From a virus, in the IMG/VR virus record IMGVR_UViG_3300024261_000009, positions 1 to 64,000 of that record: 64,000 bases of DNA. One strand, given 5' to 3'. Positions within the stretch are counted from its first letter, which is position 1. The number at the start of each line of letters is the position of its first letter. The translations under genes were made by a program, and so were the position numbers. Shown here piece after piece: positions 2,098 through 64,000 of this stretch. Below the pieces are notes generated by a model that worked only from the letters and a program-made list of their open reading frames with translations, searched no databases and had not been told where the DNA came from.

Positions 2098-2754
2098 TTA
2101 TACAGCGAGCAGTTCCCTTAGGGCACGCCTAGCCCTGTGTATGCGAGACTTCACAGCGGCCGGGGATAGGCCCATTCGTTCGCCTAGACTAGCTAGGTCT
2201 GTGCCTTCCATTATCTGACTCCACAGAGGAAACCTGTACCCCTCAGGAAGTTCTTCGATACCTGCGAGGGCTTTCCTTAGCGACTCCCTACCCATAAGCT
2301 GGTCTTCTAGAAGGTAGCTATTTTCAGTAATGCCAATAACGTCGTCTATAGACTGCTCCCCAAGCAGCTTAAGCTCTTTTGCCTCCCTACGCCTCCTAGA
2401 CCTAAGGTGCATTCTTATGGTGTTAGTTCCTATTACGTAGAACCAGGAGCTGAATTTACAGTCTCCTCGAAAACCGCCAATCTTATTAAAGGCTTTTATG
2501 CATGCTTCCTGAACGACATCATCCGCTCCGTTCAAGCCGACAGCTTTTACAGCACGCCACTTAAGCTTGGGTATCAGGGGTTTGATTAGTTTTTCGAAAG
2601 CCCTATGGTCTCCAATTTGAGCCAATTCTAGCAGGGGAGGTTCCACTTCTATCTCCTTAAGGTCCACATAATTAATGTGGTCCCTAAAAGAGTCGGCATC
2701 CATAGGTGGGGCACAGTTACCTACATCTTCGTACATTGGGGTCTTGGCTAACAT
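2098..2754 (-). CDS. ECF (group 4) sigma-70 family factor
   Basis: Region 2 DDVVQEACIKAF...KFSSWFYVIGTN; region 4 LGLSPAAVKSRIHRARRAL-type HTH (MGLSPAAVKSRIHRARR); GAGG SD upstream. Confidence 0.9.
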   Translation of the reverse strand: MLAKTPMYEDVGNCAPPMDADSFRDHINYVDLKEIEVEPPLLELAQIGDHRAFEKLIKPLIPKLKWRAVKAVGLNGADDVVQEACIKAFNKIGGFRGDCKFSSWFYVIGTNTIRMHLRSRRRREAKELKLLGEQSIDDVIGITENSYLLEDQLMGRESLRKALAGIEELPEGYRFPLWSQIMEGTDLASLGERMGLSPAAVKSRIHRARRALRELLAV

Positions 2755-43700: not shown

Positions 43701-43839
43701 CGGTAAAGAATCCTCCCCACCCCGGAGGAGAACCTCCCAGGATTAATATTGAGCAAGGGGAAGCCCCTTGACTTAGTTCCATGTTTTCTGATCCATACTC
43801 CCTACATCCAATGCAGGAGCTTGGTTTTATAACTCTCAT
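40768..43839 (-). CDS. polA: Family A DNA polymerase with N-terminal UDG family-4-like domain and 3'-5' exonuclease
   Basis: LDTET (ExoI), YAAIDAD (ExoIII), DFAGAEVR (motif A), RKETKQVVFGTLYG (motif B), TVHDS (motif C); N-terminal CxxC and PKIIFAMGS UDG-like. Confidence 0.93.
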   Translation of the reverse strand: MRVIKPSSCIGCREYGSENMELSQGASPCSILILGGSPPGWGGFFTDRSGRIVRGAIEDLVSEEKRDPRYTNRMGPIQAVSKGKRLMYAVHCSAGALDKEIISHCARSMTHGSILKASPKIIFAMGSAPIKSLGIAGSVRKIRGQAMSASIGGSSFTVIPTISPIQLVKDSAGLYEMFKSDMRTAFMEAAAKDNLESVDPEHLRERYDLPKTLEEVESVCDAYSSYSLPGKSIGNTLMALDTETNTLKPWSQEAKIIMVSASVAEKKACAILLNHREAEYDWRKALPHVLKMTMSRHPKGWWNWKYDYQMFKYALMPKLRDLCTSDQYRDNLERVVGVSYETILLKSGVNNTRWDGLLGEHMINEDSKGFYSLKSVVTNYLPEYAGYEESIKEGFNALANEKILGDLSSSVDPVFIASSSELGEPSFSYPRGSSEGEVARLGKVELDRVKKSVSELTKEKNKTPEQKVNLSNLRELRNGIDQWLKSYRKRLRHLKKEAKVYEKEAKMEVKSSQALEGEQTTYEDLDVDLLSLYAAIDADITRSISVMQRVRAYKEDPTRREITGRHNLISLMDRHYLPLTEVLADMQSEGVYLDQEYATSLAEDLQEESLVLEEEIKTQINKDLGIPKEDMVINNPRFLGDVLIGGYGLPRKKETATGQASMTADVLKEYSEEGYEIAGKIVELRKVSKAKSTYVDRLKTLSAEDGRIHGSIHLNGTATGRSSSSSPNLQNTPPSVASRKGKRSIKKLFIPAPVHKESWWGSAYNVGLASKYGWTREDRLIWVDFDFAGAEVRVLTRFAPDEGLIRALRDGLDVHSWMTAEIHGYSYEEVNEGRKVAGSNFVKLRKETKQVVFGTLYGITAQGLHDRMGFEEQWAQEIIDKLMTRFPKIREYINETHKEIMLNKRVSTPYGRVRRFPMVNMDRSIRNKNQRQGVNFLVQSYCSDIVMSCLKNISTMLPEIRGRLLLTVHDSICAEFPESELDNLSSFLERSITQHIEKEFPDIIVPMPYDVLVGVSYGETEDF

Positions 43840-46800
43840 CTAGATACTCCTGTGTCCCACTCCTCTAGCATTGGGCCGACGTCGTACACGGTGTAGTCTG
43901 AAGTGGCTACGCCTACCTTTAGGTACCTCTTTATACCTCCAGGAACGCGCCTTACGATGTCTTCAGACACGACCATTTCCACGTCAGAGTCTGCCAGTTG
44001 TTTTAGTCTGTTGGGAGTCTCCCTTCTATAAGTGGAAACTCCCCTAAGAACTCCGTGGAGCGCGTCTGCCCAAATAACCACTAACCAGCGATTGTCCTTA
44101 GTACCGTCCTTAGAGTCAAACTCTACGTATCTGACACCACTCTCAGTTTCGTTTAGCAGACTCCTCTCTGTGGGGTCGCTTAGGATAGACCTTACAGTAG
44201 AGTGCCTTATCTCGGAGGTGGGTCTGCTGTACTCGATTGGCGCGCTTAATATGTGCTCGAAAAGAGCATGCTTTTGCGTCCCCTGTATGACCTTCTTTAG
44301 GTACTCGGACTTCGCAATAACAAAGTCTCGTATGAAAACGTGGGGGTTTCTACCGGACAGCCACACCATTGCAGCAGCGATTATAACTCCGTCTAAGAAC
44401 CTACTAGGGATCTCTACCCCCGAGCTTCTCCCGAGCATATTCATGGCTAGGGGGTTGCTATAGGTAACTCTGAGTTCATGTATGTTTTTCAGTAGGTCTG
44501 GGGTGTGTCTAAATACCCCCGTTGTTATCTTTCGTCTAAATTCCCGAAATAAATCCGATCCATATTTTTCTCTAAGCACGACCTTAGGGTTCGGATGGCC
44601 TTCCCTGAGAACCGTGTGGATCTGTATGAAACGGGACACATCAGCTTCATCTCTGAGGTACTGAATTGCAGCGCACCAGAGTTGGCATCTCAGAGTATAA
44701 GACGTAACTTCTTTATTCTCTATATTGCCTCGGACGATTCGAGCTTCGGGGTTTGAAGTTAAAGATCTAACATCCCTCAGTATACCTCTAACGTGAGCAC
44801 TTTGTGCGTTCGACCCCGTGTCCTCGAATTCATCTAAAACAGCACCTAAGGAGCAATTATTCATCTCCTTTCGAAAGCCTGCGGTTGTATAGTTGTCCAT
44901 ACCGAAGGCTGATTCTAACAACCGGTGGTCACCGTCTGCTCCCGTAAGAAGCCCAAGGAACGAGCTTTTTCCGGATCCTCGGGTGCCATTTATTATAGTA
45001 TATAACTGGCGGGGTAGAGCAGAGCAGACGGGGTTTAGCATTATTGCCGCCGCTAAGTACTGACAATCGACGTCCTGATGTTTAAAGCACCACCCTGTGG
45101 ATATTGCTTCTACAAGAAACTCAAAAAGCTTAGGTAAGTCTGATTCGTTTCCCCCTTGAAGGTCCACCACACTAGACAGTTCTTCAGACCAGGAAGGCCT
45201 AATAAGATTAAAATAGTGCTTACCAAGTTTGGGTCCGTCCAGCCTATTCCACCGCAGTGTTCTATCAGTTTGTGACGACTCAGTCCCAACGTAGACATCG
45301 CTGCCGTTTACGATGCACCACCTGTTCTTCGTGGACTCCGCATCTTTATAGGGTATGTAGTGGCAACCGGCTTTCAGTTCTTTCAGCTCACTTAGAGGAG
45401 ACATCTCCTTGATGATCTCTTCGACCGCGATTTTAACGTACTTTTCCTGAAGGGCTTGTTGTTCTAGTAGTGTTAGTTCCCGGATACCATTAGCGGTTAT
45501 CCGCTGCGTTAGGAACTGAGGAACCCCCACCTGCTCTCGAGCCCAGAAGGTAATATTACCTAAGTCACTGCTCAGAGCCGCCTGAAGTTCTGCCGCTCGA
45601 GATGCGTTCCAGCTCCGCATCTCTCTCTTAATTTTATGCCATGCCAGGATTCTACCAACGCCTCCGGCAGTGTCTGTTCCAATAAACATGTATATTGTTC
45701 TTAAGGCTGTAGTAAGCCTACGCACGTACCCCTCTTCAGACTCTTCCTGCCCTATTATAAGCGCACTTATCTCCCCCTTGGAGATATCTGTAAGGATAGC
45801 AGCCTCTTCTACGTACTTGGCTTGCTCTGAAGGGTCCAGTAGGCAGGACCCTTCGTCTATTATGACTTCCCTAACAGCCCTAAGATCGTCTCTGTCCACA
45901 GACCCGAGTCGGTCGTGAAGCCTTTCCAGCACCCACTGATACGCGTACTGGTAGTTCCTTCTATGGCCCCCATCGGTTGCTCTCGCCATCGTGGCGTCTA
46001 ACCACTTAACGCCCCCGTACTTTACGATGGCCTCATCGGGATCCTTGGCACCGACACAGTCCGGCCACGTGAAAACGTGCATAGGTATTCGGTTGTTCCT
46101 AAGCAGGTTTTTTACAATAACGTCCCCGTTGTGCTCCGGTGAGTCCGCTGTCAGTAGACAGGTCTTTATGCCAAAATCTTTTAGTTTATCTAAGTTGGAT
46201 TCCGCAGCCCCCCCAGTAGCCAGGACTATATCGTACTGCATGCCCGCTTGGATTTGGTAGGCCATGTTCGCTATAGAGTCAAACTCGCCTTCCACAATTA
46301 TGGCACTAGAATTAACGGAACTATTAGTTCCTAGTTTAGCTATGTAGTGTTGGAGACCGAAAAACCCCAGGGCGTCATCGGTTTGATCGGACACTTTAAC
46401 AAAGTCTTTTCTCCCGTCGGGGCGTAAAAAATCCGCTCTAAGTTTAATAGCGGATATTTCCGTAGGGGTGCTGTGATACACAAAGGCTAAGGACCCTGTG
46501 TACTCCGCGGTGGTCCACTGTTTTAGATATTCCCGACACCTGTCTGATTCTAGTCCCAGAACCTCGTTCATTATCTTTATAGGAGGAACAACCCCGATAG
46601 GTAAGTGCCTCAGAATTTCGATGTCGTTTCGACAAGGAGCCGGACTTAACACGCCTCTCTTTCTCAGGTAATCTAAGCAAGGCTTAGCAAAATTAAAGGT
46701 GGGGTCCGCTTCCTCGTCCAAAGAAGCTTCAGCCGCCATTCTGAGACAAGTCTTAAGAGCATACTCTGTCGCCTCCCGGGTCTTCTGCATATCTTCGCGC

Positions 46801-47159
46801 TTTTGCAGTTCCTCCGTTACAGCGTTACTTATTGACTTTATTCGGTAGATTCTTTTTAGGTCTAAGGCTACGGAGGACCAATCCTTATTAGCTACCTTGG
46901 ATAGGAACTTTATGGGGTCCGCTTCGAACAACCCGGTAGAAAAACATTTTATAAACCCCTTAGTTGTTACTATATGGCAAGAGGGGGTGTTGTCCAACGT
47001 AGGTGAGTAGGGGCTGTGTCCTACTAGTGATTTACCCTTAACTTGCCACCCGGATCCTGGAGAATACCTTTCCAGAAGGGAGGCCCAATCGGACGTAGAT
47101 AGGGATCTCCACACGTCCTTGTATTTATACCCTCTTCTAGGGCTTCTTTTTTCCGCCAC
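43836..47159 (-). CDS. Primase (Toprim)-helicase (P-loop) fusion
   Basis: IIVEGEFD, TADSPEHNGD, KDPDE (DnaG-like Toprim); GTRGSGKS and VLDEFE in C-terminal half. Confidence 0.82.
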   Translation of the reverse strand: MAEKRSPRRGYKYKDVWRSLSTSDWASLLERYSPGSGWQVKGKSLVGHSPYSPTLDNTPSCHIVTTKGFIKCFSTGLFEADPIKFLSKVANKDWSSVALDLKRIYRIKSISNAVTEELQKREDMQKTREATEYALKTCLRMAAEASLDEEADPTFNFAKPCLDYLRKRGVLSPAPCRNDIEILRHLPIGVVPPIKIMNEVLGLESDRCREYLKQWTTAEYTGSLAFVYHSTPTEISAIKLRADFLRPDGRKDFVKVSDQTDDALGFFGLQHYIAKLGTNSSVNSSAIIVEGEFDSIANMAYQIQAGMQYDIVLATGGAAESNLDKLKDFGIKTCLLTADSPEHNGDVIVKNLLRNNRIPMHVFTWPDCVGAKDPDEAIVKYGGVKWLDATMARATDGGHRRNYQYAYQWVLERLHDRLGSVDRDDLRAVREVIIDEGSCLLDPSEQAKYVEEAAILTDISKGEISALIIGQEESEEGYVRRLTTALRTIYMFIGTDTAGGVGRILAWHKIKREMRSWNASRAAELQAALSSDLGNITFWAREQVGVPQFLTQRITANGIRELTLLEQQALQEKYVKIAVEEIIKEMSPLSELKELKAGCHYIPYKDAESTKNRWCIVNGSDVYVGTESSQTDRTLRWNRLDGPKLGKHYFNLIRPSWSEELSSVVDLQGGNESDLPKLFEFLVEAISTGWCFKHQDVDCQYLAAAIMLNPVCSALPRQLYTIINGTRGSGKSSFLGLLTGADGDHRLLESAFGMDNYTTAGFRKEMNNCSLGAVLDEFEDTGSNAQSAHVRGILRDVRSLTSNPEARIVRGNIENKEVTSYTLRCQLWCAAIQYLRDEADVSRFIQIHTVLREGHPNPKVVLREKYGSDLFREFRRKITTGVFRHTPDLLKNIHELRVTYSNPLAMNMLGRSSGVEIPSRFLDGVIIAAAMVWLSGRNPHVFIRDFVIAKSEYLKKVIQGTQKHALFEHILSAPIEYSRPTSEIRHSTVRSILSDPTERSLLNETESGVRYVEFDSKDGTKDNRWLVVIWADALHGVLRGVSTYRRETPNRLKQLADSDVEMVVSEDIVRRVPGGIKRYLKVGVATSDYTVYDVGPMLEEWDTGVSR

Positions 47160-48261: not shown

Positions 48262-49002
48262 TTGTCTACCGTAAAGGTTCTTGGAAGATCCGAAGAGATA
48301 TCCATGTTCCGTAGGTACAGGTCTTCTAGGGATCCTAAACTTAGGAGACTTCTTGTGGAGAGCTGCTTAAAGCTTGTCTTCTCCTTAGCCCGTAAGTACT
48401 GGCTAGACAGGGATCCTGAGTCTCTTCAGGCGTTAATATCCGCAGGAAACGTAGGGCTCATGGAGGCGGTTGACAAATTTGATCCTGACAGAGGAGCTAG
48501 GTTTGCTAGCTATGCTTCCTTCTGGATACTCATGCACGTTAGAACAGAGCTTACGACCCTGCACGACGTTGTTATTCCTTCTTCAAAGGCAAGAAAACTT
48601 CGCATGAGGGCGTCTTCAACAAGGAAAGAGATGGGGATAGAGGAAAGTCCTAGTCCTAGCTCAATGTACTCAAAGCTGGAAGATGTACCTGAGGCTCTGT
48701 CACGATCTACTTGTTCCGACCAAACCACAACTAGTAGTTACGTGCCCGGGCATTCTATACCCGGCGCAGACGTAACCAAGTTGTTTTCCCGTTGGTTTAG
48801 GTTCCTAACTGTCCGGGAACAGTTTGTACTCCGAGCCTACTACGGCCTTCTCGGAGAAGGAGAGGGTTTAAAGCTACGACAAATATCCTCACATTTAGGA
48901 CTCTCGAGTGAGCGGGTTAGGCAAATTAAGGCCTCTGCGCTAACTAAACTTCGCAGGTGGTTTTCCTACGATGGTGTGGATTGTCCTAGTGACGTCATTT
49001 AG
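48262..49002 (+). CDS. Sigma-70 family factor (group 2/3-like, regions 2 and 4)
   Basis: LISAGNVGLMEAVDKFDPDRGARFASYASFWI; LRQISSHLGLSSERVRQIKASALTKLR. Confidence 0.9.
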   Translation: MSTVKVLGRSEEISMFRRYRSSRDPKLRRLLVESCLKLVFSLARKYWLDRDPESLQALISAGNVGLMEAVDKFDPDRGARFASYASFWILMHVRTELTTLHDVVIPSSKARKLRMRASSTRKEMGIEESPSPSSMYSKLEDVPEALSRSTCSDQTTTSSYVPGHSIPGADVTKLFSRWFRFLTVREQFVLRAYYGLLGEGEGLKLRQISSHLGLSSERVRQIKASALTKLRRWFSYDGVDCPSDVI

Positions 49003-52097: not shown

Positions 52098-53984
52098 TTA
52101 TATTTTGTTCGTGCTTACCGTCGCTTTAGACGCGCTTTTAGAGAACTTGCACGCAGGTTCGTAGGGCTTTACCCCTGCAGCTAGGCACTCCAGGGAACGA
52201 TCACAACTAACGCACTCCGGGGTCCGGGTGACCATAGCCGCCACATCTATCTTGGCCGTTAGTAGTTTGCGCGTTGCATCCATAACCGACCCTCGGATTG
52301 CAATAGTTTGAACTAGAAGTTGTTTAAACCCCTTGGCGCGTATACCAAAGTTTCTGTCTAACGACTGTAGCCAGTGATCCAGTCTCCAGTCTAGTTCGGC
52401 GTATATCATAGCAGGGGCCTTAAAGGTCACCCCTATCCCCATCGATATCTGTCCCACCAGAACTCGAGTCTTAGAGTCTTCGTTAAAAGACTTCTCTGCC
52501 GCCTTTAAATCTGGAGTAGTGCTATCATACCGCACCGAGTTAAGCCCCAAGGGATCTAGTACGGATTGTGAGAGCTCGTGAAGGGCATTAAGCATGGCTA
52601 CATGTTTTGCCCAGATAATTACTTTCCTTCCTTCAGCAAGATGGCCTTCTAGAAGCTCCCTAACGGCGTCCACTACAGGGTTTTTTCCGGAGAAGGTTAT
52701 GAGAGAGTTTCCAGGATCCCTTGTCTCCACCTTGCAAGCCTTAGTGTAGGGCTTTACCCCCTCCGCCACGCACTGGTTTAGCCTGGGACAGCCGTCACAT
52801 ATCGTGGGGTTCTTTTTAGACAGGTACAAAAAGCCGCTAGAAAGTTGCGACAACTTACTAAGTGCTACTATTTTTTCCTCTACGTTTAGAGTCCTGTTTT
52901 CTCCGGCAGAGTCTTTTATCTTGACCACTTTTCCGTCTACAATCTGGTTGTACACTTTCCTTAGCGCAGGCGTGGGCTCTATAGTTATGTGGTCAAAACT
53001 TCGTGGAGGAAGCTCAAGGCAGTCTTCAGCCTCTAAAGTTAGGGCTAAGGTTTCGACTTGCTTAGAAAGCAGGTGCATATTCTTAAAGCCTGAGACGGCA
53101 TGCTCGTGGTACCGGGACGGTATAGTGTACCTAGACTTAAAATCCCAGTAACTCGGAACTACGAACTTCCCGAGAAACCTTAGTTGGCCCCACAGGTGGC
53201 GTGGGTCTCCCAAGGACGCGGTCCCGGTTAGTAGCAACCTTCTGGAGGCCTTTTTAGCTAAGTAGTGGACCGCCTTGGTCTGCTGTGACTTGTAACCTCT
53301 CAGCCGATGAGACTCGTCTGCAACTATCATAGTGTAGGGGACCTGCGCGTATATTAGCTCGGAGGCTACTCGAGCCGTGTCATAGGTTATGACTAGAATG
53401 TCGGGAGGGTCTTTTAGTATATCTTTTAGCTTCTTAGCTCTCTGCTTAGGCCCGCTAGCAACCAAGGGTTCCGCCCTAAGCTCTCCTGCAGAATGAATGT
53501 CAGCTTCCTCTTTCCAGGTGTAGATGTTTACGCGTAGCGCGATTACCAAGCAAAGCTGTCTTCGAGAAGGGTCCTTGTTCTTTAGGTGCCTAACGAGGTC
53601 TACCACAATCTTTGTTTTACCGAGGCCTCTTCCTAGAAAGAGCCCATACCGTAGATTCCACAAGGCGTGGCAAAAGGCTGTCTTCTGGTGCGGATAAAAC
53701 GGCGTAACAGGCTCATACCCGTCCGTGTCTTCTCGCTCCATCAATAGAGGCACTCGGTCCTCTTTGGAGACGTGGTCTAAGACCTCCTCGGGGATAACCA
53801 CCGCAGGCAAAACTTTTCCTATATCCTCTACTACCTTTTGGTGGTAAGGGTAGAAAGCTGGGTACGCCCACCTTCCAGAAGGGGTTCGGACGGCACCGTA
53901 TATTTTCTTTTGGGCGGGGGACAAAGCCTCCATTATTATTACTGGAAGGCCGTTATTAAGCATTTCTACTCTAATAGTAGTCAT
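52098..53984 (-). CDS. SNF2-family helicase with two Cys-rich inserts
   Basis: YPHQ, GRGLGKT, ADESH, LTGT, QSLDRN; two CxxC-x5-C-x3-GVKPY-x3-CK modules. Confidence 0.88.
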   Translation of the reverse strand: MTTIRVEMLNNGLPVIIMEALSPAQKKIYGAVRTPSGRWAYPAFYPYHQKVVEDIGKVLPAVVIPEEVLDHVSKEDRVPLLMEREDTDGYEPVTPFYPHQKTAFCHALWNLRYGLFLGRGLGKTKIVVDLVRHLKNKDPSRRQLCLVIALRVNIYTWKEEADIHSAGELRAEPLVASGPKQRAKKLKDILKDPPDILVITYDTARVASELIYAQVPYTMIVADESHRLRGYKSQQTKAVHYLAKKASRRLLLTGTASLGDPRHLWGQLRFLGKFVVPSYWDFKSRYTIPSRYHEHAVSGFKNMHLLSKQVETLALTLEAEDCLELPPRSFDHITIEPTPALRKVYNQIVDGKVVKIKDSAGENRTLNVEEKIVALSKLSQLSSGFLYLSKKNPTICDGCPRLNQCVAEGVKPYTKACKVETRDPGNSLITFSGKNPVVDAVRELLEGHLAEGRKVIIWAKHVAMLNALHELSQSVLDPLGLNSVRYDSTTPDLKAAEKSFNEDSKTRVLVGQISMGIGVTFKAPAMIYAELDWRLDHWLQSLDRNFGIRAKGFKQLLVQTIAIRGSVMDATRKLLTAKIDVAAMVTRTPECVSCDRSLECLAAGVKPYEPACKFSKSASKATVSTNKI

Positions 53985-54078: not shown

Positions 54079-55815
54079 ATGCCCTTAGCTGACGATCTGC
54101 TCGGCGTTTCTATAAACACGGCCCGACAGTACCAAGACCCCTTTAAGCTGTGGTCTGGCAATAACACGCCTAAGGATCTTAAATCCCTGTTTAAGTGGAC
54201 TGAATACCTCTACTACAATAGTGCCCAAATATACGCGGGCGTGAAGAAATTCGCTGAATACCCCATTACAGAAATACGTTACTTAACGACCAGTCCAAAA
54301 ATACGCGACCGCTACAAAGAGCTCCTGGAAGAAGTTATTGGGATAAAGAGCTGCTTAATACGCTCCTCCCTAGACCTCCATGTGTACGGGAATAGTTTTT
54401 CTTCCGTCCACATCCCGTTTAAGAGGTTCCTTGTCTGTGACTCCTGCGGTCATAAGTCAGATATAAGAAGCGTTGATTACACGCTAAAGTTAGATAAGCT
54501 AGCTTTCAAGGGACACTGCTCCTCCTGTAACAGCACTCGAAAGATGACCGTTGAGGACCAGCGCATCTTGGACGTGGAAAAAGTTAACCTGATACGGTGG
54601 GACCCTAAGTGCATCACTATCTCCCACAACCCCGTAACGGGGGACAGTCAGTACTACTTAGACGTACCCGAAGACTTGGTCTCCTCAATAAAGAAAGCCG
54701 ACGAACACCTTATAGCGTCAACTCCTTACAGCATACTGCAGGCCGTTTCTGAAGGATCGACTTTTAAGTTCGCTTCCGGGGAACTCTTTCACATGAAGTC
54801 AGATTCCCCCGCAGGGGTTGAGGGCGGGTGGGGCTACCCAAGTCTAATGGCCGCTATGCACCTTTTTTATCACGCGTCAGTTATGCGAAAAGCGAATGAG
54901 GCCATCGCGCTTGAGAGAATTGTTCCTATGCGAATACTTCACCCGGCAGCCACATCGGGTAATGGGGATCCCATCATGTCAATGTCCATCTCTAGTTGGA
55001 TAGACGATATGAAAACTTCTGTAAAAGAATGGAGGAAGGACCCTAACCACATGGTTTTCGCTCCTGTGGCTGTTGGAGTATCTCAGATCGGCGGCGATGC
55101 CCGGGCTCTTATGGTAGACTCAGAAATACAAAGAGCCGAGGACAACATAATAGCATCCATGGGGTTACCTAAGGAGTTCATCTACGGAGGACTGTCCTTT
55201 ACAGGATCCGGAGTCACACTTAGGATGCTAGAAAACCAGCTTGAGAGCTCCCTATTTCAGATAAACAACCTTCTTCAGTGGACCACGGACAAACTCTCTA
55301 AATACCTTAGTTGGGACAGCTGCAAGGTAGCTCTGGGAGACTTTAAAATGGTGGACGATGTGCAACAGAAGGGAATCTTTCTCAACTTGTGGCAGAGCGG
55401 AGTTGTCTCAAAAACAACTCTGGCGGAGGCCAACGGGATAGACCTCGCTGAGGAGCGGGAAAGAATGAAACAAGAGCAGCTTGAAGACGCTCAGTTGCAG
55501 AGGGAGATCCAGATGTCTATACAGGAGATGCAAAACACCTTAGCGGACCAAGCTCGAGCAGAGGTCCAAATGGGTAATCCCGGGCAGCAAGCTCAAGGTT
55601 CTCAGTACGACCAGCAAGCGGTAATAGCCCAGGCAGAGAATATAGCCCTTCAGATGCTACAGATGGACCCCAATATGAGAAGATCTCAGCTGTCCTCACT
55701 GCAGTCAGAAGACTACGTTATGTACTCCGTGGTCATCCAGAGATTAGAACAACTTCAACTGGACCAGAAGAACCAAGCAGCGCAGGCCAACCTGCAGCAG
55801 ATGGGAGTAAACTAG
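54079..55815 (+). CDS. Probable portal protein with zinc-ribbon insertion
   Basis: 578 aa; LHVYGNSF, LIRWDP, LFHMK...WGYP, ALERIVPMRIL, IIASMGLPKEFI portal-like pattern; Gln-rich C-terminus; AAGGAGG SD. Confidence 0.65.
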   Translation: MPLADDLLGVSINTARQYQDPFKLWSGNNTPKDLKSLFKWTEYLYYNSAQIYAGVKKFAEYPITEIRYLTTSPKIRDRYKELLEEVIGIKSCLIRSSLDLHVYGNSFSSVHIPFKRFLVCDSCGHKSDIRSVDYTLKLDKLAFKGHCSSCNSTRKMTVEDQRILDVEKVNLIRWDPKCITISHNPVTGDSQYYLDVPEDLVSSIKKADEHLIASTPYSILQAVSEGSTFKFASGELFHMKSDSPAGVEGGWGYPSLMAAMHLFYHASVMRKANEAIALERIVPMRILHPAATSGNGDPIMSMSISSWIDDMKTSVKEWRKDPNHMVFAPVAVGVSQIGGDARALMVDSEIQRAEDNIIASMGLPKEFIYGGLSFTGSGVTLRMLENQLESSLFQINNLLQWTTDKLSKYLSWDSCKVALGDFKMVDDVQQKGIFLNLWQSGVVSKTTLAEANGIDLAEERERMKQEQLEDAQLQREIQMSIQEMQNTLADQARAEVQMGNPGQQAQGSQYDQQAVIAQAENIALQMLQMDPNMRRSQLSSLQSEDYVMYSVVIQRLEQLQLDQKNQAAQANLQQMGVN

Positions 55816-55816
55816 T

Positions 55817-56176
55817 ATGTCCTCTAACGACCCTATAAAGGATTTTTCTCAGAGTATAGGGGGAGGACTTGACGCACCGAACCCTTTTAAAGAGGGTTTA
55901 GGGAAGACTAATGGTTTTGAAAAAGACCTATTCGAAGGAACTCCCCATGAGGCTAGTAAGCCTGCGACCCTAAAGTGGCGGCCGAAAGCGCGGGTGTTTA
56001 TCATTGATGAAGACGGCAACGAGGAGTACGAGGACATATTGGCGCAGGGGGCCAACGGGGAAGTCATGTTGGGCCGAAAGGAGATAGTGGATCTTAAAGG
56101 TTCTATTTCCTACAAGGTGTACTTGGAGTGGATGATACCTATTCGACCAGCTAAAAAGAAGCAGACTAACTCGTAG
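55817..56176 (+). CDS. Hypothetical protein downstream of the portal
   Basis: 119-aa ORF starting one base after the portal stop. Confidence 0.6.
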   Translation: MSSNDPIKDFSQSIGGGLDAPNPFKEGLGKTNGFEKDLFEGTPHEASKPATLKWRPKARVFIIDEDGNEEYEDILAQGANGEVMLGRKEIVDLKGSISYKVYLEWMIPIRPAKKKQTNS

Positions 56177-56624: not shown

Positions 56625-56817
56625 CAGGCCTTCTTCACAGCTTTTCGGAGCGCCCTGCTCCGCAAGAATTCTCGCCAGATAATTATATAAATACACTATT
56701 TTTTGCCTTTCTTTATTGTGGTTAGTGCTATTTGCATGAACACTACATGTGCCTTGCATATACTTGTGACACAATTAGGGGCGGTATTTTTGCTCCGATG
56801 CCCGCTTGGAGACCCTG

Positions 56818-59800
56818 ATGAAAGATTTAACCCCCGTTGTAATGAACCCCTACGACCGTAGGGATAAAATCAGAACCTCCGCCATCCAAGGAGTGGAAAG
56901 CCTATTTCCAATTCTAGGAGACCATAGAGATCTAGAGGTAAACAACCTTCGGGTAGATAAGAAAGACTACTCCGCTTCAGATATAAAGGACGCTGTTTTA
57001 TCTGGGAGAACTCTTGGGGAGCAACTGAAAGCGGACGTGACTATCCGGGATAAAAACGGGCAGGTTATAGACGTAAAAAAGAACCACTCTCTAATGAGAG
57101 TACCCTACTTCACCCCGCAGAACACTTTCGTGGTCAAGGGAAACGAGTACGTAGTTAGACACCAGCTGAGGACTATGCCTGGGGTATACACTCGAAAAAG
57201 AGGGAATGGTGAACTTGAGGCTAGCTTTAACTTAGCTAAGGGCTCCAATTTTCGTCTTAGTATGGACCCGGAAAAAGGTCACATGAACATGGAGTACGGA
57301 TCTTCGAAAATACCCTTGTATCCGGTACTTAGAGGCATGGGAATGACTCACACGGATATATCAAAGCAGTGGGGTTCTGGTGTAGCCAACCAAAACCAGG
57401 ATGCGTTTGACCCTAAGAGGGACAAACACGTAGACCGGCTGTATAAGAAACTGGTACCGCAGAGGAAGGTGGACTCTTCCCTAAATACAGGGGAAAAGGT
57501 TTCTGTTATACTGGATAAGTATTCCAACACACTCTTAGATAAAGAGACTACTAAGAAAACTTTGGGGGAAGCCCACACTAGCGTCACTCCCAGGAGCTTA
57601 CTCGCGGCAAGCAAAAAATTACTGCGAGTATACAAGGGGGAGGCGACCTCGGACGAGAGAGACAGCCTCGAGTACCAGACTCTCCACTCCCCTGAAGATT
57701 TCATCAGGGAACGCTTAGAGCATTCGGGCAGAAATATGCGGTGGAAGTTGAAATCAAAGCTAGACTTAACGTCTAAGCCGGAAATTAGTAAGGTTCTGCC
57801 CTCGTCTACGTTCACAAAGCCTGTGGACTCCTTCATAACCACCTCTCAGATAACCACCTCCCCGACTCAGATAAACCCCATTGCGTTAATTAACGATGCC
57901 AGCAGCATTACCCGATTCGGGGAAGGGGGTATCGGAAGTGAGAGAGCTATCCCCGCGGACGTCCGAACTTTACACGCGTCCCACCTGGGAGCTTTGGACC
58001 CCTTCGGCACTCCAGAGAGCAGCAAATCCGGAGTAGATGTTCGGGCGGCTCAGCATTTATATAAGGATGATAGGGGGCGTCTTCACACCATACTCAAAAA
58101 CGTCAGGACTTCTAAGAACCAGTTTGTTCCCGTGTCGGAAATACCTAGGTCCACTGTGGCGTTTTCTAACCAGAACACCCTTTCGGGTAGTGTGGACGTA
58201 CTGCACAAGGGCAAGGTAACCAAGGTGTCCCCGGGTAAGGTTGATTACCAGGTACCCCACTCCTCGGTTCTATACGGAGTATCGACTAATCTTATACCTT
58301 TCCTAGATTCTACTCAGGGGAACCGGGCAATAATGGCCTCAAAACACGTAGCCCAGGCTGTGCCTCTGATCGGACGAGAAGCGCCTTTAATCCAGGTCGG
58401 GGCCCCCGAAAACAGTGGGTACTCCTCGATAGAGGAACTGGTGGCTAAAACTATCGTCTTGCCCACATCTCCGGTGTCGGGAAGGGTTACGCGCGTAGAC
58501 GATGATTTCATCCATATAAGAGATTCAAAAGGATCTCCCCACAAGGTTGTCCGATTCAAAGACTATCCCCTTGCGTCAAAGACGCATATAAACGAAACAC
58601 CTGTGGTCCGCAGGGGTGATAAAGTAAAGAAGGGCCAGGTTCTTTCTGACAATAACTACACGGTAGACGGGGTCCTAGCCCTGGGCAAAAACCTAAACGT
58701 GGGCTACATGGCCTACAGAGGTTTAAACTCAAATGACGCAGTGGTTATCTCAGATGCAGCCGCGGATAAGCTTACCTCGGAGCATATGGTCAAACGAGTC
58801 CTAGTGCTGGATAACGACCTCTCCCTAGGGGACAAGAAGCACGCGGCAAACTTCGCTTCGAGGTTTACTCGGGATCAGTATAGTAACTTGAAATCCGGCG
58901 TTGTTACTCCAGGAACCGTCTTGAGAAGTGGGGACCCTATAGCAACCGCAGTTAGAAAAGCCCCTCCTAGCGTTGAAAATGAAATGTTTGGTAGGATACA
59001 TAAGTCCTTGAGAAGAGAGTACGTGGACGACAGTCTCGTCTGGGAGGATCCCGAAGACGGAGAGGTTGTTGATGTAAAACAAACGGGCAACAGGTTAGCA
59101 GTAACTATAAAGTCCAAAAAAAGGATGAAGGTTGGTGATAAACTAACGAATCGGTACGGGGCTAAGGGCGTAGTATCTAAAATAATTCCCGATGCAGAGA
59201 TGATCCAGGATGCTTCGGGGAGCCCTATTGACCTACTATGGTCTTCCTCGGGTGTCATAAGTCGAATAAATCCAGGCCAGATTGTGGAGACCGCTGCCGC
59301 TAAGGTGGCTAAGAAGCAGGGCAAACCAATCGTTGTCCAAAACTTTTCCAACAGAGATAACGTTCAGTGGGCCAAAAAGTTACTAAAGGATAATGGCCTA
59401 ACCGACAAGGAAGAGGTTACCGATCCAATCACGGGAAAGAAGATACCAAATATCATGGTGGGTCCTCAGTATGTCTATAAGGGCTTTAAGTCTACGGATA
59501 CTAATTTCTCTGCTCGAGGGGCGGGAGGGTCGTACGACATTAACCAGCAGCCTGGGAGAGGAGGCATCTCTGGTGCCAAGGGGATGGGCAGGATGGAAAT
59601 TAACGGACTGCTTGCACACAACGCACGAGACATCCTAAGGGAAAATGCGGTTATAAAGGGCACCAGAAACACTGAGTACTGGAATGCGGTTAGACTCGGG
59701 CTACCCATCCCTTCTGCGACGGCTCCTTTCGCGCACAATAAGTTTGTTTCTATGCTTACCGGAGCCGGTATGCGAATGAATCGAGAGGGAAACCAGGTCA

Positions 59801-61167
59801 GCATGGCCCCTCTGACAAATAGAGATATAAGGAAGATGTCTTCCGGGGTTATTACTTCCGGGAAGATGGTTCGAGCCAAGGACCTGCGTCCCGAAGCGGG
59901 AGGACTCTTTGACCCTGGCGTGACAGGAGGGTTAACGGGGCAGAAGTGGTCTCACATAGAGTTAGACGAGCCCGTAGTCAGTCCTGTTTACCGGGACAGT
60001 GTCCGAAGAATACTGGGCTTTACTAACACAGAGCTCCAGGATACCGTGGAAAAAAAGGGCGGGGGGTTCATTAGAGAATCTCTTAAGTCTATAGATATCG
60101 ACGGTAAGATAAAATCTCTCACTAGGGAAGTTAGAACCAGATCTCCTGGGTCCTCTCAAGATGATGCTCTTAAGCAACTCAAGGCGTTTAAGGCCTTGAA
60201 GTCCCGAGGCGTTCGGCCCGAGGATGCCTACATTCTGGACGCGTTTCCCGTTTTGCCTCCTCAGTTTAGGCCTATAGTGCCAGGGCCTAAAGGAGACCTC
60301 TTAGTATCCGACGTTAACCACCTGTATAAGGACCTAGCCTTAGCTAATGAAAAGATGAAGGAAGCTAAGTCCTTAGGTCTTCCTGATAAAGATATAGGGG
60401 CCATGAGAGCCCATCTTTCAGACGCTGTTGGAGCTGTCGCGGGGCTTAACGATCCCGTTACCGACAAATCTCGTGCCGCGGCCAAGAAGGGGATTATTAA
60501 TACAATAGCGGGAACAAAAAGAGGCTTTTATAACGGGAAACTTATTAGTAAAAGATTAGATCTAACTGGGAGAGGAACCGCTGCACCAGACCCTTCCCTA
60601 GGTCTGGATGAAGTGGGTCTTCCCGAGGAGATGGCTTGGTCTATGTACCAGCCCTTTACGATAGGTAACCTGGTTAGGAGAGGGCACAAAGCTGTCCGGG
60701 CTAAAGAACTCGTAGAAAATAGGGACCCTATAGCCCGGGAGGCTTTATCTAGAGAGATTTCTCAAAGACCCGTGATTCTTAACAGAGCTCCCAGTCTGCA
60801 TAAGTACAGCCTAGTTTCCGCGTACCCCAAGATGATCCCCGGAAAAACTATAAAGGTTAACCCCTTCATTGAGGCGGGCATGAATTTGGACTACGATGGG
60901 GACGCGCTTCAGTTGCACCTACCAGCAACTCCTGGGGGAGTATCTGATGCTAAGAAGATGTTAATATCGGAAAACATCATGGGAACAAGGAATCGAGACT
61001 CTGTTCAGGTATTTCCAGAACTAGAATCCGTTATTGGACTGTATAAGGGGACAACGGGAACCTCCAGCAGGCCTATGCAAACGTTCTCTTCGCGCCGGGA
61101 GGCACTGGAAGCATACCGTAAGGGAGATATTTCTTTAAAAGACCCTGTAAGGCTAGTAAACGATTAA
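56818..61167 (+). CDS. Multi-subunit RNA polymerase: beta fused to N-terminal half of beta'
   Basis: beta: GEGG, DPFGTPES, NRAIMASKH..QAVPL, GDKLTNRYGAKGVVS; beta': GLFDP..HIEL, KRLDLTGR, LNRAPSLH, NLDYDGD (60883-60903); GGAG SD before ATG 56818 (track start 56806). Confidence 0.93.
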   Translation: MKDLTPVVMNPYDRRDKIRTSAIQGVESLFPILGDHRDLEVNNLRVDKKDYSASDIKDAVLSGRTLGEQLKADVTIRDKNGQVIDVKKNHSLMRVPYFTPQNTFVVKGNEYVVRHQLRTMPGVYTRKRGNGELEASFNLAKGSNFRLSMDPEKGHMNMEYGSSKIPLYPVLRGMGMTHTDISKQWGSGVANQNQDAFDPKRDKHVDRLYKKLVPQRKVDSSLNTGEKVSVILDKYSNTLLDKETTKKTLGEAHTSVTPRSLLAASKKLLRVYKGEATSDERDSLEYQTLHSPEDFIRERLEHSGRNMRWKLKSKLDLTSKPEISKVLPSSTFTKPVDSFITTSQITTSPTQINPIALINDASSITRFGEGGIGSERAIPADVRTLHASHLGALDPFGTPESSKSGVDVRAAQHLYKDDRGRLHTILKNVRTSKNQFVPVSEIPRSTVAFSNQNTLSGSVDVLHKGKVTKVSPGKVDYQVPHSSVLYGVSTNLIPFLDSTQGNRAIMASKHVAQAVPLIGREAPLIQVGAPENSGYSSIEELVAKTIVLPTSPVSGRVTRVDDDFIHIRDSKGSPHKVVRFKDYPLASKTHINETPVVRRGDKVKKGQVLSDNNYTVDGVLALGKNLNVGYMAYRGLNSNDAVVISDAAADKLTSEHMVKRVLVLDNDLSLGDKKHAANFASRFTRDQYSNLKSGVVTPGTVLRSGDPIATAVRKAPPSVENEMFGRIHKSLRREYVDDSLVWEDPEDGEVVDVKQTGNRLAVTIKSKKRMKVGDKLTNRYGAKGVVSKIIPDAEMIQDASGSPIDLLWSSSGVISRINPGQIVETAAAKVAKKQGKPIVVQNFSNRDNVQWAKKLLKDNGLTDKEEVTDPITGKKIPNIMVGPQYVYKGFKSTDTNFSARGAGGSYDINQQPGRGGISGAKGMGRMEINGLLAHNARDILRENAVIKGTRNTEYWNAVRLGLPIPSATAPFAHNKFVSMLTGAGMRMNREGNQVSMAPLTNRDIRKMSSGVITSGKMVRAKDLRPEAGGLFDPGVTGGLTGQKWSHIELDEPVVSPVYRDSVRRILGFTNTELQDTVEKKGGGFIRESLKSIDIDGKIKSLTREVRTRSPGSSQDDALKQLKAFKALKSRGVRPEDAYILDAFPVLPPQFRPIVPGPKGDLLVSDVNHLYKDLALANEKMKEAKSLGLPDKDIGAMRAHLSDAVGAVAGLNDPVTDKSRAAAKKGIINTIAGTKRGFYNGKLISKRLDLTGRGTAAPDPSLGLDEVGLPEEMAWSMYQPFTIGNLVRRGHKAVRAKELVENRDPIAREALSREISQRPVILNRAPSLHKYSLVSAYPKMIPGKTIKVNPFIEAGMNLDYDGDALQLHLPATPGGVSDAKKMLISENIMGTRNRDSVQVFPELESVIGLYKGTTGTSSRPMQTFSSRREALEAYRKGDISLKDPVRLVND

Positions 61168-61219
61168 CTGGTAATGCAAACCTCGTAGTCCTATTTTAAA
61201 ACAGTCAGGAGAATATGAA

Positions 61220-61693
61220 ATGTCGCAACCCAAGTTAATACCACTAGTCCTGCTTTTCGCAACCCTATCGGTCCCTTTCGTAGCCACATCCCAAGACGGG
61301 GGCGCTAATGATTCCGGTACAGCCTCCTCTGCGGGCGAAGAATCTCCAGTGACAACAGCGCTTGGAGATCCCGAAACTGTAGAGCAGGCAATCCAATTAG
61401 TGTCTCAAGCCTTTGACATGGCCCTAGCGGGCCAGTGGCTCTTGCTAGCAATACTCCTGATACAGCTGGGGGTGTTCCTCATCAAAAGATACGCTCCGAG
61501 CGGTTACATGAAGGCCTGGGGGTCCGTTACTGTGGGCGCTCTGGCGGCTTTGATAGCAGTCCTATCCGGCTTATCCGGGGGATTGTCTTGGCAGGAATGC
61601 CTCGTAGTGTTCCTCTCGGGCCCGGCCTCGTCTCTAGCAGTAGACTTCTTGCACGCTATGGGCTGGCTTAAAAGAAAGACTCTCGATGCTTAG
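61220..61693 (+). CDS. Multi-pass membrane protein with signal-like N-terminus (holin-like candidate)
   Basis: Hydrophobic leader plus about three TM segments and basic C-terminus (LKRK). Confidence 0.45.
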   Translation: MSQPKLIPLVLLFATLSVPFVATSQDGGANDSGTASSAGEESPVTTALGDPETVEQAIQLVSQAFDMALAGQWLLLAILLIQLGVFLIKRYAPSGYMKAWGSVTVGALAALIAVLSGLSGGLSWQECLVVFLSGPASSLAVDFLHAMGWLKRKTLDA

Positions 61694-61943
61694 TACTGCG
61701 TATAAAATCGGTAGTGTCACCGCTGTTGCTGACTTTCTAGCTAAGGCAGCCTCCTCGGAAACCTCTGAGTCGGGGGTGGCGGAAAACTTCATTGCCCGGA
61801 TCAACCAAATAACAGTGGGCTCTTCTGAAGAAGATGCCTCTCAGGCCAAACGAACGGGGAATGAGGTGTCTGCCTCAAGCCCCTCAACACGTCAAGCGGT
61901 AAGCTGGACGTCTCCCACGATAATTCATTCTGGAAGGCCTTAG
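61686..61943 (+). CDS. Small protein with MLxxAY(K/R)xGS leader
   Basis: Begins MLSTAYKIGS; overlaps upstream gene by 8 nt. Confidence 0.65.
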   Translation: MLSTAYKIGSVTAVADFLAKAASSETSESGVAENFIARINQITVGSSEEDASQAKRTGNEVSASSPSTRQAVSWTSPTIIHSGRP

Positions 61944-61946
61944 TAA

Positions 61947-62720
61947 ATGCTTAGTAGAGCCTACAAAGCCGGAAGTTACGAAGCTGAAGAGGCCTTTCTC
62001 GAGCGGCTATCCGGGGACCCGTCCTTTGAAAAGGTATCGTGGGCGGCACTCCGTACTATAGGATCCTCCCTCATGGGTACTGGGGCTAGGGCAGGGACAT
62101 CCTCAATAATGTCCGGCGTGGGCTCCGGAGCAAGGGCTGCTTGGGGTGCGGGCATGGCATCCAGACCCGTGTCTGCAGCTAAGTTCATGTTAGGCATGGG
62201 CGGAAAAACTAGGCTTGGAAAGAACCTCTCTTTTTGGGGAGCTTCTCCACTAACCTTCGGGGGTGTTGGTGCCGCTACGGCCGAAGAGGGAGAGAGGGGC
62301 GAAGCCTTCATGAAGGGTGTCGCTGGCGGCCTACTGTTCAACGTAGGTATGCGCGGAGGGGAAAAACTAGTGGGTGGGGGCTTACTGAAGGCCCTGAAAC
62401 CTAAGGCGGGCATTGGGTTGAACGCTTTTACAAAGCACACCGCAAAGAGTGTAAAAGCACACAAGGGTCTTATGCCAAAGGGGGTCCCGCCCCCGCAAGC
62501 AGGAGAATACGCCGTTGGTTTTAAACAGCTGGGAGCGGCGGATAAGTTACGGAGAGGCTCGGTAGCTACGGGCACCGCTCTCGGCGGGATGGCAGGCGGC
62601 TTCGGACTTTCGATGGCAGCAGACCCCCTGGTGAACATTTTCTCTAAGAAGAACGTTCCCTACAAGGTCCCTCCAATGACACACGTAAATAACCCGTATA
62701 ACCCGGTATACTACAGGTGA
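61947..62720 (+). CDS. Glycine-zipper protein with MLxxAY(K/R)xGS leader; putative internal virion protein
   Basis: Begins MLSRAYKAGS; several GxxxG hydrophobic stretches. Confidence 0.65.
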   Translation: MLSRAYKAGSYEAEEAFLERLSGDPSFEKVSWAALRTIGSSLMGTGARAGTSSIMSGVGSGARAAWGAGMASRPVSAAKFMLGMGGKTRLGKNLSFWGASPLTFGGVGAATAEEGERGEAFMKGVAGGLLFNVGMRGGEKLVGGGLLKALKPKAGIGLNAFTKHTAKSVKAHKGLMPKGVPPPQAGEYAVGFKQLGAADKLRRGSVATGTALGGMAGGFGLSMAADPLVNIFSKKNVPYKVPPMTHVNNPYNPVYYR

Positions 62721-62724
62721 GTAG

Positions 62725-63081
62725 ATGTTAGATATTGCATACAGGATAGGTTCTCGAAGGGCAGAAGAGGAGGCTCTTTTAAAGCATTCCTCGCTGGCTA
62801 AGAGTTTAGCAGCAGCAGGCGTGTCCGGGAGCGTTATAGGTTCCGTAGGAAGCCAGTTGAGTTCCAGAGATGACGGTTCCCTATTCCTAGACCCCAAGCA
62901 GGTGTCCGGCCAGGCTATCACAGAGGGGGCCGCTACAGGACTAGGCGCAATGGGGGGGTTAGCCGCGGGTAGAACCTTCGGAAAAGGCTTTTGGCCCAGC
63001 GTTCTGGGAATGGCTCTGGGAGGTACTATAGCCCCTACCGCTGTAAGAAACCTAGGTTCGAGTAGAAACAATGTCTATTAG
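62725..63081 (+). CDS. Glycine-zipper protein with MLxxAY(K/R)xGS leader; putative internal virion protein
   Basis: Begins MLDIAYRIGS; GAATGLGAMGGLAAG and LGMALGG zippers. Confidence 0.65.
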   Translation: MLDIAYRIGSRRAEEEALLKHSSLAKSLAAAGVSGSVIGSVGSQLSSRDDGSLFLDPKQVSGQAITEGAATGLGAMGGLAAGRTFGKGFWPSVLGMALGGTIAPTAVRNLGSSRNNVY

Positions 63082-64000
63082 TGGGCCTCTAGGGAGTGTA
63101 TTGGTCAACTCACTGCTTCCCGAAGTTCACCGAATTTCGGGGCCTCTGGATAAGAAAAACCTTCGGACCAGTTTAAAAGAGTACGCGCGTAAAGACCCAA
63201 GAGGGTACGCCGAAAAAGTTACGGATATTAAGAATCTGGGGGATGAGTTTGCTACTTACGAGGGCGTGTCCGTCGGCCTAGACGATATAGAACCTCAGTA
63301 CAGGGTCCGGGACCCTATCCTGAAGAACGCTCGAAAACAGTTCTGGTCGGCAAAGTCCGAGGACGAAAAGACTAAGGTGCTCCTAGCAACGCAAGATAAG
63401 CTGAAGGGCATAACTGGGTCCCACCCGGGCGACTTGGGTCTTATGGCTCGTTCCGGGGGTCGGGGAAACTTGGCTCAGATGATGAAGGCAACAGCCTCCC
63501 CTGTGGTGATTGGCGATTACCACGGAGCGCCGGTTCCCTACTTAATATCGAGGGGCTACTCGGAAGGACTAGCTCCAGCAGAGCATTGGATAGCGGGAGA
63601 CGAGAGTCGCGCTCAGGTTATTAAGGGTCAGTTAGGGACGGCGGACCCTGGGGAACTTGGGAATATAATGGCCGCAATGATGTCCTCTCAGGTTATCTCG
63701 TCAGAAGACTGTGGGACAGACAATGGGCTTCTACTAAAGTCTGGGGATACAAACTCTCTAGGCCGGTTTGAGGCGGGAACGAACAGAATAGTAGACTCCC
63801 GGATATTAAAAGCTGTAGGTAGGACCGGGGGCATTAAAGTTCGCTCCCCAATGACCTGCGAGCTCCCCTCTGGAGTGTGCAAAAAGTGTCAGGGAACGAA
63901 CAACTACGGAGAACTCGAGGAAATAGGTTCCAACGTAGGAGTAGCTTCTGCCCAAGCTTTGGGTGAACCTCTAACCCAACTAACGCTGTCTTCAAAGCAC
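63071..64000 (+). CDS. RNA polymerase beta' C-terminal half (runs off the window; absent from the ORF track)
   Basis: ATG 63071, open to the end; SGGRGN, GYSEGLAPAEH (bridge helix), EDCGT...VRSPMTC...GVCKKC (Zn site), VGVASAQALGEPLTQLTLSSKH (trigger loop). Confidence 0.92.
   Translation, partial: MSISGPLGSVLVNSLLPEVHRISGPLDKKNLRTSLKEYARKDPRGYAEKVTDIKNLGDEFATYEGVSVGLDDIEPQYRVRDPILKNARKQFWSAKSEDEKTKVLLATQDKLKGITGSHPGDLGLMARSGGRGNLAQMMKATASPVVIGDYHGAPVPYLISRGYSEGLAPAEHWIAGDESRAQVIKGQLGTADPGELGNIMAAMMSSQVISSEDCGTDNGLLLKSGDTNSLGRFEAGTNRIVDSRILKAVGRTGGIKVRSPMTCELPSGVCKKCQGTNNYGELEEIGSNVGVASAQALGEPLTQLTLSSKH

Follow-up and report, generated by a model that had tools for sequence, protein, structure and literature searches.

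A phage RNA polymerase with beta fused to the N-terminal part of beta' and the remainder of beta' encoded by a separate gene

The window examined here, a stretch of 64,000 nucleotides (nt), is the first 64 kb of the virus record IMGVR_UViG_3300024261_000009 (IMG/VR; linear, 117,232 bp; completeness estimated at 73%). The record belongs to a large tailed phage of marine origin. Its last part of the window encodes a bacterial-type multi-subunit RNA polymerase (RNAP) of unusual layout, in which the beta subunit runs in frame into the N-terminal part of beta' (beta'-N; together, chain 1) and the C-terminal part of beta' (beta'-C; chain 2) is a separate gene beyond four intervening open reading frames (ORFs). 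The layout had been proposed in a preliminary description made from the letters of the window, and the features on which it rests are as follows, with lengths in amino acids (aa).

56818..61167 (+), chain 1 gene, RNAP beta fused in frame to beta'-N; 1449 aa from the ATG, with an upstream TTG at 56806 also possible
56818..59790 (+), beta portion, about 990 aa; Rpb2 domains 2, 3 and 6, with the active-site GDK...KG at 59134-59172
57844-57933 (+), equivalent of rifampicin cluster I; positions D516, H526, R529 and S531 substituted
59785..59800 (+), fusion seam; end of the beta C-terminal helix passing into beta' at about E. coli residue 14, no linker
59791..61164 (+), beta'-N portion, about 458 aa; lid/clamp-helix region from 60244, ending at about E. 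coli beta' 550
60883..60903 (+), catalytic Mg loop NLDYDGD, residues 1360-1366; canonical form NADFDGD, all three Asp kept
61220-61693, 61686-61943, 61947-62720 and 62725-63081 (+), four intervening ORFs of 157, 85, 257 and 118 aa
63071..64000 (+; to 64849 in the parent record), chain 2 gene, beta'-C; 592 aa, ATG start
63605-63697 (+), bridge helix of chain 2, by alignment
63704-63895 (+), Zn2 cysteines of chain 2, four Cys, by alignment
63962-64000 (+), trigger loop of chain 2, GEPLTQLTLSSKH, in the last nucleotides of the window

The ORF at 56806-61167 (+) is translated without interruption (1453 aa counted from the TTG at 56806), and the likely start codon is the ATG at 56818, which has GGAG 7 nt upstream; counted from this ATG, chain 1 is 100% identical to the protein cluster P0004 (1449 aa). 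Pfam domains of both subunits lie within it, Rpb2_2, Rpb2_3 and Rpb2_6 of beta at residues 153-919 and Rpb1_1 and Rpb1_2 of beta' at residues 1098-1386, with PF00562 matching at an E value of 1.4e-47. Among solved structures, complete beta chains match residues 25-989, the top matches of the beta part being cyanobacterial (8syi and 8gzg; E about 2e-65), and residues 1083-1448 align with E. coli beta' 179-548. In a multiple alignment that included Salmonella rpoC and cellular fused enzymes, by which the seam was placed, the beta C-terminal helix FAHNKFVSMLTGAGMRMNREG (nt 59728-59790) abuts beta' NQVSMAPLTNRDIRKMSSG (nt 59791-59847) with no linker, about 13 residues of beta' and a few from the very end of beta having been lost at the junction. 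The domains of both subunits and this linker-free junction in one ORF bear out the proposed fusion, and the seam at nt 59790/59791 agrees with the junction that had been set near 59790. The chain also ends shortly after NLDYDGD, as described, with its terminus 87 residues past the loop and a TAA at 61165-61167.

Chain 2 aligns with the C-terminal beta' of Bacillus, Streptomyces, and Thermus, and with cyanobacterial beta' from residue 27 of that protein. The bridge helix, Zn site, and trigger loop that the preliminary description had assigned to the gene starting at 63071 all align within it, and the four genes before it, described as unrelated, are indeed without a family match, as none of the four has a Pfam or PHROG hit. 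The ESM Atlas offered no function for two of the four, and a BLAST of all four against the corresponding gaps of relatives found no counterpart except one weak match. Because they are not conserved among relatives, these ORFs look like variable cargo at the split seam. An Rfam scan of the window returned no family, and thus no intron match, ARAGORN found no tRNA in the window, and consensus promoter and terminator scans around the RNAP genes gave nothing above chance.

As the source is a metagenome-assembled linear record that is 73% complete, the split might be suspected to stem from faulty assembly or gene calling, or to mark a pseudogene in decay, in this one contig. Every boundary is bridged by identical contigs from seawater metagenome runs independent of the window's record: contigs of run X2 span the fusion junction (59750-59965) and the second start (63014-63500), and a contig of run X3 spans the stop codon (61146-61514). 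The same layout is common to 83 representative clusters and four isolate genomes, the catalytic motifs are all intact in both chains, and homologues of both products have been detected as proteins in Salmonella phage Arash (below). On these grounds the artefact and pseudogene readings were rejected, with a probability that is negligible, and the split and fused layout is genuine.

Isolate relatives were sought with tblastn against 50,697 phage records. Four of these, Salmonella phage Arash (OQ632216; gp206 and gp216) and Vibrio phages D69, D148, and D181, match 99% of the length of chain 1 with about 33% identity, and each has a separate downstream chain 2, at about 31% identity to that of the window. 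In their annotation the portal gene is followed by a small ORF, then by the fusion gene (about 1525 aa), and, after a gap, by a beta'-C gene of 606-609 aa, with nine genes in the gap of Arash and two in that of D69. All four thus have the two-chain layout of the window, likewise beside a portal gene, and fall in the same split clade, but their chain 1 is about 75 aa longer, the gap genes are others, and the catalytic loop reads AADYDGD. In the records of these phages and in the Arash paper the chains are named 'beta' and 'beta prime', with the fusion and the split unmentioned. A further match, at 30% identity in 'Bacteriophage sp.' MT836236, was set aside as it belongs to a bacterial rplKAJL-rpoBC operon and is not a phage enzyme.

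The layout is widespread in metagenomes. A collection of 5.8 billion proteins holds at least 120 clusters (90% identity) of beta plus beta'-N proteins of about 1450 aa, with 44-67% identity to the window, from marine and other metagenomes and on contigs of up to 197 kb; three genomic contexts have the same gene order, with 2-7 unrelated genes in the gap. The order of portal, fusion gene, variable gap, and beta'-C gene is shared by Arash, D69, D181, the loci L012 and L014, and a GenBank contig, and across relatives the gap contains 2-9 differing genes, some on the opposite strand. A LigD-like ligase/primase-polymerase gene is found within the RNAP gap of L014 (15096-16562) and of the GenBank contig of P0070, and the split seam appears to gather unrelated cargo genes.

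In an exhaustive HMMER search of chain 1 residues 601-1453, a segment that spans the junction, against 1.84 billion representatives (50% identity clusters), all of the best 150 matches were beta–beta'-N fusions (36-61% identity; E below 1e-165). The modules beta, beta'-N, and beta'-C were then mapped on these matches and on the long proteins found with chain 2, which divided the family into 83 split proteins, ending within a few residues of the end of beta'-N, and 84 full-length proteins of about 2020-2120 aa, longer where they carry inserts. In the full-length proteins about 6-10 residues lie between beta'-N and beta'-C, and the C-terminus of the window's chain 1 and the N-terminus of its chain 2 correspond to neighbouring positions in a continuous relative, with no residues missing or extra. 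The single-chain phage enzymes (e.g., P0125, P0140, and P0331), known from metagenomes only and located on phage-like contigs of up to 184 kb, belong to the same family at 36-41% identity and have the same direct beta–beta' junction and the same loss of a Zn ribbon (below), but their beta' is continuous. Close relatives (44-67% identity) and the Arash and Vibrio phages are all split. A continuous beta' in relatives had been named in the preliminary description as a sign of an assembly chimera; distant relatives do have one, but they form a sister group of single-chain fusions and are no evidence of a chimera.

Phylogenies including cellular enzymes, which had been suggested as a check, were constructed with FastTree (171 rows, 1418 columns, rooted on the cellular fused enzymes of candidate phyla) and with IQ-TREE (LG+G4, short search; 81 rows, 1392 columns, including the unfused Salmonella enzyme). 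The phage family forms one group in both trees, its basal lines are all full-length, and the split rows, including the window, Arash, and D69, form one clade nested within this family of fused enzymes, with a Shimodaira-Hasegawa (SH)-like support of 98. Each successive sister of the split clade towards the cellular root is full-length. The one exception within the split clade is the full-length P0290 (2565 aa), whose sister is P0305. Two state changes account for the tree data, and a single origin is compatible with the well-supported branches. Because the split rows are nested and all of the sisters towards the root are full-length, it is concluded from these trees of protein sequences that the split form is the derived one, with a single-chain beta–beta' enzyme as its ancestor.

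Many members of the family are interrupted by other elements. Inserts of at least 100 aa are carried by 72 representatives (e.g., P0009, P0126, P0129, and P0247-P0390); they range from 118 to 547 aa, with a median of 376, and Pfam finds intein or LAGLIDADG domains in many of them. They occur at five hot spots, in window numbering near residues 410, 780 (at the GDK active site), 1240, and 1370 (directly past the catalytic loop) of chain 1 and near residue 310 (at the trigger loop) of chain 2. In Vibrio phage D181 (OZ196140) a group I intron (RF00028, 100.7 bits, E 2e-26; L003:5604-5884) lies inside the beta part of the fusion gene and is followed by a homing-endonuclease ORF, with the same interruption in D148; the D181 annotation has two 'hypothetical proteins' in place of one spliced gene. 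A family so rich in mobile elements raises the alternative that the two genes of the window are rejoined through an intron, trans-splicing, or a split intein into a single working beta–beta' chain. The absence of any Rfam intron in the window argues against this, as does the contiguity of the chain 1 end and chain 2 start in full-length relatives, which leaves no residues for the halves of a split intein. The gap, moreover, consists of 2-9 ordinary genes, some on the opposite strand and two encoding virion proteins in Arash. Rejoining was rejected for these reasons and is considered very improbable.

Compared with cellular enzymes the phage chains are compact. Three insertions of the E. coli lineage, at beta 225-354, 934-1037, and 1125-1178, are absent from the beta part, which keeps the flap-tip helix and the active-site lysines, with GDKLTNRYGAKGV (residues 777-789) aligning with E. 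coli K1065/K1073. From beta' the N-terminal Zn ribbon is missing, with about 32 aa deleted at a site corresponding to 59899-59976: the interval between GGLFD and HIEL is 21-27 residues without Cys in 165 of the 166 family rows, as against about 55 residues with four Cys in cellular enzymes, and the ribbon is, as judged from the alignment, lost throughout the phage family. Chain 1 retains the whole of the clamp-helix region, the part that in bacteria binds sigma region 2. The trigger loop is short and without a lineage insertion, and keeps the equivalent of His936 while that of Arg933 is Ser.

The departures from canonical motifs that had drawn attention in the window, in the catalytic loop and the trigger loop, are present as stated and are unexceptional within the clade. 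Catalytic loops there include NADYDGD, NLDYDGD, NADFDGD, GADFDGD, and others; NLDYDGD occurs in nine of the 83 split representatives, and NADFDGD is the commonest loop of the full-length forms (43 of 84). The Asp triad is kept in every listed motif variant of the 166 family rows except one full-length row (NMDFNGD). As the loop varies across the clade with its three Asp kept, the differences in the window are normal for the family. At the positions equivalent to D516, H526, and S531 the window and most of its family carry other residues, S531 being replaced by Thr in 70 of 76 family rows. Substitutions at positions of the rifampicin pocket confer resistance in established genetics, and, because such positions are substituted here, the phage enzyme is predicted to be probably insensitive to rifampicin.

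Each of the known systems shares part of this architecture. Fusions of rpoB and rpoC occur in Helicobacter and Wolbachia, and in these cellular fusions, as in those of candidate phyla (P0196 and P0188), the C-terminus of beta is joined to the N-terminus of beta' in one ORF as in the window. They keep the Zn ribbon, however, with about 230 residues from the end of beta to the lid region compared with about 95 in the window, their beta' is continuous, and they work with alpha and omega. The ORF of the window ends at about beta' 550, whereas a complete beta' span in one ORF, of the Helicobacter and Wolbachia type, is found in the sister clade of single-chain phage enzymes. In cyanobacteria and plastids (rpoC1 and rpoC2) beta' is likewise cut after the catalytic barrel, but cyanobacteria encode beta on its own, with rpoC1 and rpoC2 side by side, whereas in the window beta is fused and four genes lie between the parts of beta'. 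Cyanobacteria also have alpha and omega and a large insertion in the trigger loop that is absent from the window. RNAPs of the phiKZ/AR9 type resemble that of the window in being phage-encoded, in having no alpha or omega, and in a beta' split after the barrel (PMC7598289). Their beta, in contrast, is in 2-3 pieces and never fused to beta', while that of the window is intact and fused, and they comprise two enzyme sets (virion and non-virion) with no sigma-70 homologue, compared with one set and two sigma genes in the window; identity between these enzymes and the window is 22-28% over parts. Cellular-like beta and beta' in metagenomic tailed phages were reported as mReC by Weinheimer and Aylward (2020; PMC7481178), where the Supplementary Data 2 entries compared here are all separate beta (920-1563 aa) and beta' (887-1391 aa) proteins and where a filter required NADxDGD, which the NLDYDGD loop of the window does not pass. 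The window thus lacks both the separate full-length beta and beta' genes and the NADxDGD of the mReC type.

In E. coli beta' numbering, the break between chain 1 and chain 2 falls at about 550-573, roughly 10-20 residues before the N-terminus of cyanobacterial beta' (the rpoC1/rpoC2 boundary), and the beta' split of jumbo phages has been noted to coincide with the cyanobacterial position (PMC7598289). As the same joint is used in this clade, in cyanobacteria, and in jumbo phages, beta' has therefore been cut there at least three times.

Several features outside of the two RNAP genes bear on how the enzyme may be used.

48262..49002 (+), sigma-70 family factor with regions 2 and 4; syntenic in relatives, a candidate promoter-specificity subunit
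2098..2754 (-), second sigma factor, extracytoplasmic function (ECF)-like, with regions 2 and 4_2; sequence match
54079..55815 (+), portal-like protein, conserved immediately before the RNAP genes in every relative examined

A single RNAP set is present in the window's record, as in the complete genomes of Arash and D69, and for alpha and omega (PF01000, PF01193, and PF01192) nothing above noise was found in these three. Sigma genes number 1-2 across these three, and relatives of the sigma factor at 48262-49002 sit on the same long contigs as the polymerase. The two sigma genes of the window could serve different temporal gene classes. A helicase of the SNF2 family (52098-53984, -) is divergent from the block of portal and RNAP genes, an arrangement also seen in L012, L014, and a GenBank contig, and in Arash a helicase directly follows beta'-C; it may be a RapA-like partner of the polymerase, and a similar link of helicase and polymerase has been noted in a comparative genomics survey of jumbo phages. 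The small ORF at 55817-56176 was considered as an extra subunit and dropped, being conserved in the nearest relative only and coupled to the portal gene.

The RNAP genes lie between the portal gene, whose product is 30-64% identical to its counterparts in Arash, D69, L012, and L014, and a gene resembling a prohead protease, all on the same strand, with a weak match to a major head protein after it. In the particle proteomics of Arash, gp206, the homologue of chain 1, had the highest spectral count of all proteins, gp216, the homologue of chain 2, and the sigma factor gp10 were also detected, and two products of gap genes were identified as virion proteins (PMC10585845). Packaging of the polymerase would fit its place in the head module, these spectra, and the single RNAP set, which differs from the separate virion and non-virion enzymes of other phages. 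The alternative is that the enzyme is not packaged, and that the host polymerase, redirected by the phage sigma factors, transcribes the early genes while the phage enzyme, made later, transcribes only middle or late genes with some specificity factor. Phage-encoded sigma factors such as T4 gp55 and SPO1 gp28 classically act on the host core, many clearly non-structural enzymes occur in the Arash particle proteome, so that carry-over is possible, and the sigma factor of the window has no significant similarity to the virion-associated gp10. Set against the gene positions and the Arash spectra, this alternative is regarded as unlikely.

The reading that is favoured, with good though not full confidence, is that the enzyme is a two-chain RNAP core of bacterial type made by the phage, split from a single-chain ancestor, using sigma, free of alpha and omega, and packaged in the particle. 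Chain 1 contributes the two double-psi beta-barrels together with the Mg-binding loop, lid, and clamp helices, and chain 2 contributes the bridge helix, trigger loop, jaw/cleft, and second Zn site. They presumably assemble non-covalently, as do cyanobacterial gamma and beta'. The ancestor would have been a phage enzyme with beta and the whole of beta' in one chain of about 2040 aa, from which, in one lineage, an insertion of DNA at a permissive seam between domains may have severed the last 590 residues or so, with the gap subsequently coming to hold variable genes. Chains 1 and 2 would form a core that needs neither alpha nor omega and works together with a phage sigma factor. In cells an alpha dimer is the platform on which RNA polymerase assembles, and the covalent link of beta and beta' may replace this platform. 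Made alongside the head proteins, the enzyme would be packaged in the capsid, injected, and would transcribe phage genes.

Several points weigh against this account. We infer the assembly of the chains, the use of sigma, and the independence from host alpha from sequence, and phage sigma factors often redirect the host polymerase. An alpha-like gene could sit in the missing part of the record, which is 73% complete, though two complete relatives are without one. The position of P0290 calls for a later re-fusion or for another split of separate origin, the polarity of the trees hangs on the cellular root, and branch support comes from quick methods. Particles of Arash also contained ribonucleotide reductases, ligases, and a primase, and its authors allow for carry-over of abundant non-structural proteins (PMC10585845).

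A wider reading, offered tentatively and held to be possible rather than probable, is that the very large family as a whole consists of minimal bacterial-type transcription machines in phages of about 150-190 kb, each with a core of one or two chains, beta and beta' being covalently linked, that would be free of alpha, omega, and the Zn ribbon, use a phage sigma-70 factor, and be packaged and injected.

Elsewhere in the window, a family A DNA polymerase (40768-43839, -; 1023 aa) adjoins a gene with a primase-like segment (43836-47159, -; 1107 aa), and, because both are present, the phage has a replication module of its own beside the transcription module. In the neighbourhood of a baseplate-wedge gene there are also three very large plus-strand ORFs, at 4651-8535, 10663-13806, and 17166-21086 (1294, 1047, and 1306 aa). 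Apart from an immunoglobulin (Ig)-like domain in the third, none matches a PHROG or Pfam family, and all three are probably tail or fibre proteins.

Each element of the architecture is precedented: the fusion in Helicobacter, Wolbachia, and candidate phyla, the split in cyanobacteria and jumbo phages, and phage enzymes without alpha. The combination, its origin from a large family of single-chain phage enzymes, and the pairing with sigma factors appear to be unreported. A literature search, which took in the Arash and mReC papers, a review of jumbo-phage RNAPs, a jumbo-phage review of 2026, and a comparative genomics survey of such phages, and in which most subscription journals lay outside of the coverage, found no description of a phage beta–beta'-N fusion with a separate beta'-C, nor of a single-chain phage enzyme of cellular beta–beta' type. 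The suggestion in the preliminary description that the layout might already be standard for a described phage clade is therefore half right, in that it is standard in a large clade with isolates in GenBank, but no description of it was found.

Recognition of the architecture would correct records that label chain 1 as plain 'beta', although in at least one isolate the enzyme is plentiful in particles, and it bears on phylogenies that take beta and beta' as separate markers. The site of the cyanobacterial split emerges as a recurrent permissive seam, and, if the wider reading is true, the repeated cuts of beta' at this one place would mark a general permissive joint of the enzyme. The family pairs single-chain and two-chain versions of one enzyme for natural comparison, and could provide a compact polymerase, probably insensitive to rifampicin, that would suit structural and applied studies. 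An enzyme that depends on sigma and is free of alpha would, if the account holds, be a natural test of the need for alpha and omega, and, should the family indeed consist of minimal machines, it would represent the simplest known sigma-dependent holoenzyme of cellular type.

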